A DNA stretch of 64,000 nt. It comes from Eledone cirrhosa (Eukaryota). Of this stretch, positions 8,179-62,110 are shown one piece after another (position 1 is the first letter of the stretch; each line of letters starts with the position of its first letter). The stretch spans positions 57,474,001 to 57,538,000 of the forward strand of contig OZ024743.1 of NCBI GenBank assembly GCA_964016885.1, read 5' to 3'. Under the pieces are notes generated by a model, which saw nothing but the letters and a program-made list of their open reading frames with translations, made no database searches and had not been told where the DNA came from. Made by a program: the position numbers and the translations under genes.

Positions 8179-8244
8179 TATTTTATCTGAAGAAGGCATG
8201 CCATATTTTTAATATGGTATCCCCGAAATATGTATAATGAAATA
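8179..8244 (+). ncRNA. Type I hammerhead ribozyme
   Basis: Stem I TATTTTAT/ATGAAATA; core CTGAAGA; stem II AGG-C-ATGCCATATT/AATATGGTAT-C-CCC; GAAA; TATGTA; AUA cleavage triplet. Confidence 0.78.
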
Positions 8245-8449
8245 AATATGGTTTTATAAATATAGTTTCCATTTGTTTAATATCGTATATCTACTCCAAA
8301 ACTTGTCGAGTGCTTTATATCAGTTATAAAATATTTACTTGTTGTAACCCAACAATTTTAAATAAAACTTTTGCATATATATATATATATATTTCGTTTC
8401 TGAATTTGTTTAGCAAGATTCTTTATCTGAAAACGTGTGTTGAAACCGA

Positions 8450-8845
8450 TATTATTATACTTTGAGAGGGTCATGTTTCCAATAAGAAACACACGCACCA
8501 GTTGCTGCTTTCACTTCAATTTATTATAATAAATTTATAAATTTATGAATTTATGAATTTCCGGTTGGTCGGTTGTTCTGTCCTACGCCAACAAGATGGC
8601 GTAGGACAGAACAAAGCAGAGGCACAAAAACAAAGAAAAGAATCCCCAGTCACTGAAAAGGTCATAGAATGTGTGACGAAAGAACTTTAACAATATATAA
8701 ACAATCATCTGGTTGTGGAACCAACCAACCAACCGGAAATTTATAAATTCCTAAATTTATAAATTTATTATAATAAATTGAAGTGAGAGCAACTGGTGCG
8801 TGTGTTTCTTATTGGCAACATGACTCTCCCAAAGTATAATAATAA
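8450..8845. repeat. Fold-back element (about 125-bp inverted arms) with an internal hairpin at 8574-8612
   Basis: 8450-8575 is approximately the reverse complement of 8718-8845; TGTTCTGTCCTACGCCA...TGGCGTAGGACAGAACA; (TA)n flanks. Confidence 0.75.
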
Positions 8846-9109
8846 TATATATATATATATATATATATATATATATGTGTGTGTGTATGTAAATCCTTAA
8901 ATTTCTCATATTCCTTCCAGTCGCATGTGGTGACCTTAATGTCTTGGTTACAGCATCTGTCAAGAATTCTATCTTAAGAAATCTATCTCCAAGTTCTTAC
9001 AGCTAACAAGAAGTAGTCAATAGACTAAAATATCTTGACTCCATTACACTTTGACAGAATAGATACTCATTTAGTTTAGACATAGTTTCCCTCTAGACAT
9101 CTGACCCCG

Positions 9110-10715
9110 CCTCCCCGACCATCCATTTAATTACGAACAACATCATCACCTCTACCGACCTCAGTTGTTTGGGTTGACTGCTGATGCTATCCGCCAACTG
9201 TTCTCTAGCGTCATGTGCAACACCCTTCTCCAGTTTGAGGGCTCCGTATACAAACACATCTCAGGACTTCCGATGAGTTCGAGTCTTTCAGCCCTTTCAG
9301 ACTAGTTGGAACGCACAGCACGCACCACCTGCCACTCATGCTCTTTCTCTGGGTACGTGGATGACATCCTTATGTAGACTTCATCACGTGAAAAAGCCGT
9401 AAAGATCTACATCTTTGAAAACATTGATGCACACATAAAATTTGAGGTTGATCATCCAGACACCACTGGATTCCTCTCTCTCCTCGACTTTACGCATGAA
9501 AAACATCGTACAGGAAAGATGACTGCCGAAACATTTTTGTGAACCACGACTCCGCCCTTCTCTACAGAGCCAAAATGGCCTATATACGGAATGAGATCTC
9601 CATGATGCGCAACAGATGCAGCCAGAGTTGTTACAGATATACCGGCATGGTGGAATTCCAAAGAGTTTTCACCAAAATCGGCTACCCTTCTTCTTTCAAC
9701 AAACAACGAAATGCCAAGGCAGTAATACGTAACAGAACAAGGCAGACAAATGTCCCTAAAGATAACATATGCTATCCAAAGCTACTATATTTCAATGAGA
9801 AGATGACAGCTGCCATCCGACAAGCCATCCGTAGGAGTGACCGAATATATGGCTGGCACATTCGAAACCCTCATTGAGATGACTACTCCACAGACACTGA
9901 CCCACATGCAGCGATATATGCACACTTCATAATTGTCCTGTCAACAGCATAGAACTGCGCATGATAGCATATGTGGTCTATAAGATCACGTGCAAAAAAT
10001 GTAGGTCCTCATACATCGGAAGTACCATAAGAAGGCTACTCATACGGATCAAGGAACATGTGACAATGAGAGTCTCTTCCGTTAAAAAACATATTAGCAG
10101 ATGTCGTAACCAGCATTGAGGTCACCATAGAGACGACTGAAAGGAATATGGGAAGTTTAAGGATTAAGGAGGCAATTTTATCATCAACCGAATAAAACCA
10201 GAGATAAATAATTGTTTCTACTTTTGGCAAAAGGCAAGCAATTACCTGGTACTTTATTTTATTGACCTCGTAAGGATGAAAGGCAAAGTTAACCTCGGCG
10301 GGATTTGAACTCAGAATGTCAAGGGCCGTAACTCAATGCGTCAAAGCATGGCGTCCGACCCTCTACCGATACTGCCAATCCAGAGATAAATAATAGGTCA
10401 GAAATACACGAGGCAGAATGGTTACTGTAGTGACGTCGCGTATACGCATGCATTTTGCATACGCATAGACCTGTTGGGGAAGAAAACTCTGAAAACTCTG
10501 ATCACCCATTTGTTTTGTCTTGGACTGTTTCAGCTTCGCATCTGAAAAAAAGGTTAATAGACATGAAATATCATGGGCAAAACTACTTTGTTTTATTTTG
10601 TTTCATTTGTCATCATTTGTTCTTCGTATTTTTCTACCGCATTGTACCAGCTTTAAAAAAAATATTTATTGGTCTTTTACTACATATCTCACCATGCTTC
10701 GTATTAACTACACTA
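9110..10715 (+). mobile_element. Decayed Penelope-like element (RT + GIY-YIG endonuclease), possibly Naiad/Poseidon type
   Basis: Translated remnants GLPMSSSLS, YVDDIL, DTTGFLSLLD; linker CTLHNCPV; VVYKITCKKCRSSYIGSTIRRLHTRIKEH; KPEIN; many stops and frameshifts; ends at (TA)n. Confidence 0.82.
10213..10380 (-). mobile_element. tRNA-derived SINE with Meta-type central domain, inserted in the PLE
   Basis: A-box TGGCAGTATCGG, B-box GAGTTCAAATCC, GCCTTTCATCCTTACGAGGTC; target-site duplication CAGAGATAAATAAT (10199-10212 / 10381-10394). Confidence 0.85.
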
Positions 10716-59270: not shown

Positions 59271-59455
59271 TGTTTCTACTTTTGGCACAAGGGCAGCTAT
59301 TACCCCAGTGTATTACTGGTACTTTATTTTATAGACCCCGTAAGGATGAAAGGCAAAGTTAACCCCAGCGGGATTTGAACTCAGAATGGCAAGGGCCGTA
59401 ACTCAATGTGTCAAAGCATGGCGTCCGGCCCTCTACCGATACTGCCAATCCACCG
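59271..59455 (-). mobile_element. Meta-type tRNA SINE with target-site duplication
   Basis: Flanked by GTTCTTTT(G/A)TAAAATAAT; related decayed copies at 58335-58455, 58655-58800, 59600-59750. Confidence 0.85.
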
Positions 59456-60079
59456 TTCTTTTATAAAATAATGTTGGAAGATTTTAATTTAAATTGGAAA
59501 TCTTTAAAATGGCTGATTTTATTTTATAGAACCAAAGCCAGTTTTGGCCCGGTTGGTAACTAAAGGGTTTAAAGCTCGTTATATGGCCTATATCTGTCAG
59601 ACACCATGCTTTGTAGCACTGAGTTATGGCCCTTTACTTTCTGAGTTCAAATCCCGCCCAGGGTAATTTTGACCTTACGGGATCGATAAAATAAAGCACA
59701 AGTAATGCGTTGGGGGTAATTGCTGGCCTTGAGCCAAAAGTAGAAACAGTCAATGTCATAAGCAGGCTAGGCTGTTGTCTTGATTGATCAACTGGTACAC
59801 TCACCATCGAAACTGACGTAGGTCCATTCCAGACATTCCATATGTCTGTCACAGAAAATATGCCAACCATTTGTTACTATTTGAATTAGATTGGCAGATA
59901 ATTTTTTCCGCATGATTTATCCTTTTTCCTCTCTCATATTGAAAATAACTCTTTTGAAAAGTAAAAAAAAAAAATTATATATATATTCTAGTTCGACATT
60001 TTACTGACTAAATTGATATTTCAGCGCCCACAATTATAATGCCATACTGTACTACATGCGTATACACTAACATTAAAAA

Positions 60080-61300
60080 CTACTACTACTACTACTACTA
60101 CTACTACTACTACTACTACTACTACTGCTGCTGCTGCTGCTGCTACTACTACTACTACTGCTACTGCTACTGCTGCTGCTGCTGTTGCTACTACTACTAC
60201 TACTACTACTACTACTACTACTACTACTACTACTACTAGTGCTGTCACACGTCTGTATAGTCATTAGACATGAATACGTTACTAACTGTTCTTTCTCACA
60301 CACTCTCTCCGCACACACACGCACCCACGCACACACAAACTTTCAATCTCAAACTGACACACACACATACAGACAGCACTCACTCTAAATAAACACTTGT
60401 CACTAATGTCTATATAAATACAAATATTGAAAAAAAAATACACTTCTGTTATAGCCTAACACAAATGTGACGTCTGTAAATTATGTTTCAGGTCTGAATA
60501 TATATATATATATATATAAAATATATATATAGTCTATATTATATATATATATATAATGTATATTATATATATATATATATATATATATATATATATATAT
60601 ATATATATATATATATATATATATATAAAATATATATATAATGTATATTATATATATATATATAATGTATATTATATATATATATATATATATATATATA
60701 TATATATATATATATATTATATATATATATATATATATATATATATATATATATATATATATATATATATATATATAATATACATTATGTATATTATATA
60801 TATATATATATATATATATATATATATATATATATATATATATATATATATAATATATATATATATATATATATATATATATATATATATAATATACATA
60901 TATATATCTATATAATGTATAATATATATATATATATATATATATATATAAATGTATATTATATATATATACATATATATATATATATATGTATATATAT
61001 ATATATATATATATATATATATATATATATATATATATATATATATATATATATATATATATATATATATATATATATATAAAATGTATATATATTATAT
61101 ATATATATATAGATATAATATACATTTTATATATATATATATATATATATATAATATACATTTTATATATATATATATATATATATATATATGTATATAT
61201 ATATATATATACATATATATATATATAAAATGTATATATATTATATATATATATATATAATATATATACATTTTATATATATATGTATATATATATAATT
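60080..61300. repeat. (TAC/TGC)n and long degenerate (TA)n tracts
   Basis: Read directly from sequence. Confidence 0.95.
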
Positions 61301-61794
61301 CAAGTTAAAAGGTATATGTAGAGAAACAGAGTCATATATTATTTGAGAAACGATATATGACGCTTTCTCTCTCTACATATATCTTTTAACTTGAATTATT
61401 GATGCTCTGAACCAAGGCCCAATGCTTATTTATTGAGAAACGTCCATCATATATACTAAATATGTATTGATACTTTCACATAGTAAGTATATATAGAAAA
61501 ACCACAAACCCTCCATCTCAATTCTTCCTTTGGAAAGCATAAGAACTGTGAAGCAGGTAAAGGAAACAAATAAATATTCTTAAAAAGACTCCAGTTGCAT
61601 TTTCGATTTCATTTTTTCTCCTTACACTTTCACTAGTGTAGAACATTTCGTTTTTTTTTATTTAACCCCCCCCCCCTCTTCATTTTCTTATATATGTGTA
61701 TATATATATATATATTCGTGTATAGTGGTAGCTATGGTGCTTCCGTAGGCGGTATGCCAAAATTAGCACTCGATATCCATCAGAGTAGAGTGTA

Positions 61795-62110
61795 TATATT
61801 ATCAAGAAAATGAAAAATCAGTGATGCATCTGGACTTAGTTTATTTCGTGTTACAAATGTTTCGCCGGCATGTAGCTCGAGTCATGGTCCTTGTATGGAT
61901 CTGGCTGATTCTACTTCTGCGGGTTCTTTCAGACACGGGTGTTATGTCCGGAGCAAATTTTATTATGATAAAATTTGCTCCGGACATAACAGAATCAGCC
62001 AGATCCATACAAGGACCATGACTCGAGCTACATGCCGGCGAAACATTTGTAACACGAAATAAACTAAGTCCAGATGCATCACTGATTTTTCGTTTTCTTG
62101 ATAATATATA
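61795..62110. mobile_element. Palindromic mini-element; left arm carries a hammerhead with about 60-nt stem II (61847-61937, minus strand)
   Basis: CGTGT CTGAAAGA ACC-C-GCA...TGC-C-GGC GAAA CATTTG TA ACACG; the right arm lacks the roughly 28-bp core segment. Confidence 0.65.

Follow-up and report, generated by a model that had tools for sequence, protein, structure and literature searches.

Hammerhead ribozymes are carried by Penelope-like retroelements, in which their role is stated to be unclear in the text of PMC8557442. According to the text of Cervera and de la Peña (2014; PMC4209133), the min-HHR hammerheads of metazoan Penelope-like elements lie in pseudo-long terminal repeats (pseudo-LTRs), have a long helix II and an AU-rich 3′ flank, occur in inverted pairs 100–700 nt apart, and cleave slowly and in a dimer-dependent manner, their palindromic helix III being predicted to need a dimer. 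In the alignment of Hydra-clade Penelope hammerheads (Craig et al., 2021; PMC8557442 File S2), a type I motif lies near the 3′ end of an element that encodes a reverse transcriptase (RT) bearing a GIY-YIG endonuclease at its C-terminus and that sits in (TA)n, helix III is short and palindromic, and stem II opens with a weak pair, which many rows give as U·U. Such weak first pairs, U10.1·U11.1 among them, were already known, as the text of PMC7229834 and PMC3088659 indicates. The short-stem-III variants of Lünse, Weinberg and Breaker (2017) are also associated with Penelope elements and cleave as dimers, according to the summary in PMC6765202, through which alone they were compared. The same summary describes the Clec2 hammerhead in the 3′ untranslated region of mammals, whose cleavage site lies upstream of the polyadenylation signal, which is removed by cleavage. 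Here we describe hammerhead motifs from a 64,000-nt stretch of the Eledone cirrhosa genome (assembly GCA_964016885.1, contig OZ024743.1, forward-strand positions 57,474,001 to 57,538,000; G000:C4:57474001-57538000 in our locus numbering, hereafter the window) that resemble the published groups but carry, at the fourth pair of stem II, a C opposite a C or a U (hereafter C·Y) that is kept while the neighboring pairs change. Positions are given in window numbering, pattern scans cover the whole 3.0-Gb genome, and loci outside the window are labeled L with a number.

All six loci at which the initial annotation had read a core, three pairs or quasi-pairs, a C opposite a C and a long helix were present, and two further C·C copies in the window, with cores at 7043 and 46278 of the minus strand, are inverted twins of two of them. 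The six share one layout: after CUGAN(N)GA come three positions that are paired or quasi-paired, the C opposed to a C and then a longer helix; GAAA is followed by a near-palindromic loop III of 6 nt, and UH and stem I complete the motif. UA or UC stands at the predicted cut, stem I has 4–8 bp, and the two mismatched Cs are 15–54 nt apart. The arrangement is that of a type I hammerhead, with the core CUGANGA...GAAA...UH around three helices and helix I open, and one family has an 8-nt core. We class the C·C sites as type I hammerhead motifs with a palindromic loop III, predicted from their sequences to be self-cleaving.

Three of the six belong to group g0. The first occupies 8179..8246 of the plus strand (core at 8187; C·C, here and below at positions 10.4/11.4, at 8197/8221; predicted cut after 8236; AATAAA at 8241-8246). 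It is carried by the pyrimidine-rich 3′ end, or pseudo-LTR tail, of a Penelope-like element (7855..8293, plus strand), and its inverted twin at 6984..7051 of the minus strand (C·C at 7033/7009) lies inside a 439-nt inverted repeat (6937-7375 / 7855-8293), whose inverted copy stops at a (TA)n run. The second, at 46412..46478 of the plus strand (core at 46420; C·C at 46430/46453; predicted cut after 46468; AATAAA at 46473), has its twin at 46220..46286 of the minus strand (C·C at 46268/46245). The third, at 46873..46939 of the minus strand (core at 46931; C·C at 46921/46896), is of the GGAC subfamily, and its predicted cut after 46881 splits AATAAA. Group g25 is represented at 47730..47818 of the plus strand (core at 47738; C·C at 47748/47786; predicted cut after 47801; ATTAAA at 47813), without a linked open reading frame (ORF), and by a related copy with a short stem II at 27664..27729 of the plus strand (core at 27672; C·C at 27682/27697; predicted cut after 27712; AATAAA at 27724), in which the second pair of stem I is broken. 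The last, of group g18, at 61840..61940 of the minus strand (core at 61932; C·C at 61921/61867; predicted cut after 61852; AATAAA at 61845), has the 8-nt core; the C·C first reported for it was confirmed, while the start of its stem II is at 61924 rather than 61925.

The observation that the flanking pairs differ while the mismatch stays was borne out in larger sets. Among 11 subfamilies, pair 4 was C·C in eight and C·U in three, pair 3 showed all four Watson-Crick types, and pair 1 was A-U, G·U, G-C, U·U or A·C. In 92 distinct stems, pairs 2, 3, 5, 6, and 7 were paired in 439 of 460 cells, and the RNA sense strand is favored because G·U outnumbered A·C 28 to 7. Covariation was followed in 18 hand-picked, related sequences, of which the 8-nt-core copy was off by one column on the 5′ side: pair 3 was paired in 18 of 18, with nine double changes, while pair 4 was paired in none, and helices I and II held 58 cells with two-sided changes, a value reached in 0 of 500 shuffles and compared with 6–17 in slid controls. 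Pairing in a shifted register, by which the Cs would become paired, was rejected, since it does not hold up from family to family in the alignments and in the slid controls. Six-tip parsimony on the protein tree gave no change at the 5′ C, one to three at each of the other six positions, and two, both C to U, at the partner position 11.4. Of 17 groups, nine had an isolated mismatch at pair 4, and all other positions taken together had four, in loci picked partly with C-containing patterns.

In the GGTC family, the C is present in 8,516 copies and replaced in 101, of which the 100 listed have T in 58, A in 21, and G in 21. A repaired C-G subfamily was considered and rejected, as the 21 copies with G, out of 8,617, have mixed backgrounds; the T/A/G spectrum on such backgrounds indicates post-insertion decay, and no C-G subfamily has been amplified in this one family. 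A coding constraint was also rejected, as the ORF begins about 260 nt downstream of the 5′ hammerhead and ends 0.9–3 kb ahead of the 3′ one. The invariant is C10.4 opposite C or U, kept, as judged from the aligned sequences, across deeply diverged families. The initial annotation was right that C10.4 is kept, but its partner is not always C, the youngest family having C·U in all 54 of the hammerheads detected at 30 loci; because this family is intact as well as young, we state the rule as C opposite a pyrimidine. We are highly confident that the mismatch is real and selected. In addition, the long stem II regions of otherwise different families (window 61932 of the minus strand and 26249 of the plus strand; L040, L060, and L039) share the words AGA(G/A)TCAG and CTC(G/A)AGC, which possibly form an extra conserved substructure.

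The C·Y motifs differ from the published groups chiefly at this position. In PMC8557442 File S2, read by eye, a pair-4 mismatch occurs in 0 of 26 Hydra-clade rows, and most rows have stems of 4–5 bp and 7 nt in loop III, whereas stem II of the C·Y hammerheads continues past the mismatch, loop III has 6 nt, and the youngest unit measures about 3.7 kb, compared with less than 3 kb. According to the text of PMC4209133, the min-HHR consensus adds one base behind A9, pairs G10.1 with C11.1 and keeps helix II contiguous; the C·Y hammerheads, with pair 1 variable and pair 4 unpaired, fall outside that definition. By eye, three pairs followed by C·C are seen in 0 of the 56 rows of Fig. S3 of PMC4209133, and the min-HHR descriptor of that study may have filtered such motifs out. 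The Clec2 hammerhead belongs to a host gene and has a discontinuous fold, whereas the hammerhead here is that of a retroelement and has the polyadenylation hexamer within stem I or adjoining it. Consistent with the suggestion that the mismatch is undescribed, no account of a pair-4 C·C or C·U was found in the literature compared, which included PMC4209133, PMC8557442, PMC11167929, PMC10085705, and bioRxiv 10.64898/2026.07.22.740005 as texts without figures and did not extend to Lünse et al. (2017; PMID 27858507), the likeliest prior source. Comparison with the Rfam hammerhead models, which the initial annotation had proposed, gave no hammerhead among the best 150 of 256 window matches and none at the gathering score for five loci with such motifs.

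The motif is very abundant. The pattern CTGANGANNNC-N10..40-CNNYGAAA matched the genome 94,430 times, compared with 5,794 for the reversed pattern, and a structural scanner found 288 hammerheads in 151 sequences (1.43 Mb) and three in the same sequences reversed; these counts are so far above those of the reversed controls that chance is not an explanation. The structural scanner allows odd lengths of loop III. In a frame fixed at 7 nt for the core, 18–48 nt for the stem II region and 6 nt for loop III, in which a few places are counted twice, leaving pair 4 free gave 144,040 places (control 15,569), of which C·C accounted for 88,520 (control 1,501), C·U for 28,365 (control 236), and C-G for 2,738 (control 1,783). 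After subtraction of the controls these become about 87,000 for C·C (about 68%), 28,000 for C·U (about 22%), and 1,000 for C-G (less than 1%). Because the frame fixes the lengths of the core, stem II and loop III, short-stem families with a paired pair 4 are missing from these counts. With about 115,000 copies, the C·Y class is the largest hammerhead class in this genome, though it does not include every hammerhead.

A metagenome scan with the C·C frame gave at least 117 loci, in which no pattern match passed the structure filter and two passing hits lay elsewhere in the loci; among the metagenome matches listed, there was no evidence of a C·C hammerhead outside this genome. Contigs of runs X1 and X4, possibly from the organism of the window, varied at 8223 and 8224 but had no variant at or above 5% at either mismatched C (8197 and 8221). 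Run X5, from organism B, gave two contigs at depth 2–3, which is too little for a claim on a second species.

GIY-YIG frames lie about 1–2 kb upstream of the hammerheads on the same strand. The most complete view comes from P0001, an intact 821-aa RT-GIY-YIG ORF with 55 matches at 98–100% identity, most of them without stops. In this youngest family (L027:3628-6093 and L061-L090), each of the two flanking repeats holds a hammerhead, the two lying about 3.7 kb from each other. P0001 has marks by which section 11 of PMC8557442 defines the Hydra clade: the DKT motif and a CxCX5C linker are present, CCHH is missing from the endonuclease, and CxxC and CxH stand near the C-terminus. At the place of the N-terminal RWK of that clade, it has RWT. 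Pfam assigned no name to the domains of P0001, and RT and GIY-YIG were read from motifs and from likeness to published Hydra proteins. The carriers, judged from these motifs, are Penelope-like retroelements that match the Hydra clade in having RT, with GIY-YIG at the C-terminus, upstream of the hammerhead. A (TA)5 run lay no more than 300 nt from the cut, with a median distance of 58 nt, in 171 of 193 copies, a count without a control in a genome that is rich in (TA)n.

Links between proteins and hammerheads were found at two or more loci each for g0, g9, and g18 with C·C, g7 and g31 with C·U, g21 with A·C, and g28 with a normal pair. The g18 family, including window 61932, was linked to RT and GIY-YIG at L096, L408, and L409, while the GGAC subfamily and g2 each have an ORF link from a single locus. 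No ORF link was found for g8 or for g25, which includes window 27672 and 47738; apparent links of g8 (L017 and L031) and of g25 (L104 and L411), as well as L113, were rejected as nested insertions. The loci L328-L357 of the 47738 family are mostly short inverted-pair units bounded by (TA)n, without a linked ORF.

The six window loci fall into three groups at the DNA level, consisting of 8187, 46420, and 46931; 27672 and 47738; and 61932. DNA clustering placed five of them, and 27672, which failed the filter, was assigned through an 83% match over 48 nt to 47738. In a tree of RT and endonuclease with 30 rows, all from this genome, the five C·Y families that could be tied to an RT/endonuclease of their own form one clade, apart from the A·C and paired families, and C·U sits on two separate branches. 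RT identity among the five is mostly 45–56% over at least 250 residues. Because the C·Y families make up one clade, the mismatch appears to have been inherited and long retained rather than to have arisen six times. The divergence that had been claimed for these hammerheads is thus supported while their independent recurrence is not, and derivation of all copies from one recent family, which the initial annotation had named as a refutation, is ruled out by the protein and DNA comparisons. Lone mismatches at pair 4 also occur outside the C·Y set, as A·C in g21, a sister clade by protein (L093+8224 and L124+1383), and as U·C in g12, which is unlinked (L040+4556 and L148-5758).

Several explanations for the retention of the mismatch were weighed. 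An unselected, inherited accident, lasting since C-to-G transversions are rare, is improbable. The linked families do form one clade, the only two changes at 11.4 are transitions, and the six-tip parsimony contrast is modest; however, the RT domains are only about half identical, several groups cannot be aligned at the DNA level, the passage of pair 3 through all four Watson-Crick types required transversions, and the excess of isolated mismatches at pair 4, in loci partly picked by C-containing patterns, is unexpected for an accident. A constraint at the DNA level, as a promoter word in the pseudo-LTR or as a hairpin in cDNA that would read C·C as G·G, would agree with the presence of promoters in pseudo-LTRs (text of PMC6765202) and with the inverted repeats made by these elements. 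We regard it as very improbable, given that G·U exceeds A·C on the sense strand, that the two Cs of the window copies are as far apart as noted above, and that the bases flanking them vary freely.

Two further explanations place the mismatch in the working of the element. It could stand in for loop II and speed cleavage through a contact with stem I or with the A-rich strand that follows, and its position and base specificity would suit a contact: pair 4 is the end of the canonical 4-bp helix II of type I, where loop 2 meets helix I (text of PMC4209133), and the base itself may matter, as C10.4 is present, paired with G, in 16 of the 26 Hydra-clade rows by eye (PMC8557442 File S2). The tertiary contact with stem I that the initial annotation envisaged, beside a dimer contact or a protein/RT recognition site, was not recovered, however, since stem I has no base that is both conserved and in a fixed register, nor one that changes with the C·C or C·U state; moreover, its length differs between groups (4–5 bp or 8 bp), and a hidden tertiary contact sought in a min-HHR with a long helix II had no clear effect, according to supplement legend S6 of PMC4209133. 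We consider such docking possible but rather unlikely. Less likely still is that the RT-endonuclease of the clade reads the mismatch as an identity mark for template choice or priming, independent of catalysis. C·Y does track one protein clade, with A·C or a normal pair in sister families, and in another Penelope element the RT starts near the hammerhead, the cleavage of which is dispensable for insertion (text of PMC11167929). A subfamily with A·A at pair 3 has been amplified although its proximal stem is defective, and C·C persists in one or more copies at 10 of its 11 loci; it is young, though, so this retention has little power, and stems I and II covary like those of a working ribozyme fold.

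The explanation we favor, though tentatively and with some doubt, is that the mismatch is a gate that holds cutting until the protein or a dimer partner assists. Among 193 distinct C·Y copies from the window and the loci, 180 have A[A/T]TAAA starting between −1 and about +20 from the predicted cut, compared with 3 and 18 in controls; the same place is occupied in 53 of 131 other hammerheads. The hexamer is located within or alongside stem I, and it is split by the predicted cut in the youngest family as well as in the GGAC subfamily. An energy model gave a mean probability for pair 3 of 0.02–0.55 in seven mismatch groups, 0.52–0.99 when pair 4 was made C-G in silico, and 0.92–1.00 in five paired families, and the C·Y mismatch is thus predicted to lower formation of the proximal stem. 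The three core-proximal pairs of stem II would stay weakly folded, and the cutter inactive, as long as neither the protein of the element nor a partner copy in a dimer relieved the gate. Cutting would remove or split the polyadenylation signal, and the element would for that reason gain from a delayed cut, its polyadenylated mRNA being protected until the protein is made. In the text of PMC11167929, another Penelope hammerhead is reported to have cleaved only upon addition of the element's protein. A general inhibitory pair between C10.4 and G12 was rejected as a mechanism; its predicted probability was 0.65 in g8, weak in g18 and g25 (0.20–0.23), and 0.00–0.02 in g0 and g7, so that it is not general and is kept only as a lead.

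Several points weigh against this gate and the selection behind it. The energy model describes stems without the catalytic core, dimers, or Mg2+, and pair 3 is also low in the paired groups g28 (0.29) and g33 (0.44–0.68). The families g2, g4, g28, and g35, with a paired pair 4, also sit on the polyadenylation hexamer. Because paired families share the hexamer and some of them a low pair 3 probability, the mismatch is not required for the hexamer arrangement, and simple weakening leaves a constant 5′ C at exactly pair 4 unexplained. The A·A subfamily belongs to g25, the family of window 47738, and was present in 11 of 21 loci found with a query that carried this variant. Since it is unlikely to fold the core, and since cleavage was dispensable for insertion in vitro in the Penelope element of PMC11167929, catalysis may not be the selected trait. 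Zero changes at the 5′ C is weak evidence alone, with about 2.3 expected from the other positions on a six-tip tree, and the C·Y clade has an ultrafast bootstrap support of only 75 with a midpoint root.

The window also contains hammerhead motifs without the mismatch, at 36679 and 44601 of the minus strand and at 31508 and 56284 of the plus strand, which the initial annotation left out together with the retroelement clade and the polyadenylation signal at the cut site. The motif at 36641..36687 (minus strand; core at 36679) has a short stem with C-G at pair 4, and that at 44564..44609 (minus strand; core at 44601) has G-C at pair 4. The core of the latter family shows the U3-A8 covariation of the type reported for Schistosoma elements in the text of PMC4209133. 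A GIY-YIG endonuclease fragment at 32014..32466 of the minus strand is 33–34% identical to P0001 and has no linked C·C hammerhead. Fragments of elements with RT and zf-RVT and a PDIV-type nuclease motif lie at 903-2774, 13765-14793, and 51107-53033, and presumably resemble R4/Dong retrotransposons. Elsewhere in the genome, L140 (G000:C1:92.98-93.02 Mb) carries tandem hammerhead-bearing repeats at multiples of about 660 nt, which are like non-LTR retrozymes and have C-G at pair 4.

The initial annotation had raised the possibility of an undescribed subclass. A stronger form of that proposal, in which the element's own RT-endonuclease would use the conserved C·Y loop as a switch, the AAUAAA in or beside stem I being either left in a polyadenylated mRNA or split or removed to give a template that is cut to unit length, is conceivable but doubtful. 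The C·Y hammerheads constitute a large ribozyme class without an Rfam report, and descriptors that require a contiguous helix could miss such motifs. In a very large natural series, they mark one position at which pairing is avoided. Because the series is large, a young family retains its ORFs intact, and cut site and polyadenylation signal overlap, one-base tests of cleavage, of dependence on the protein and of 3′-end choice are possible in these elements.

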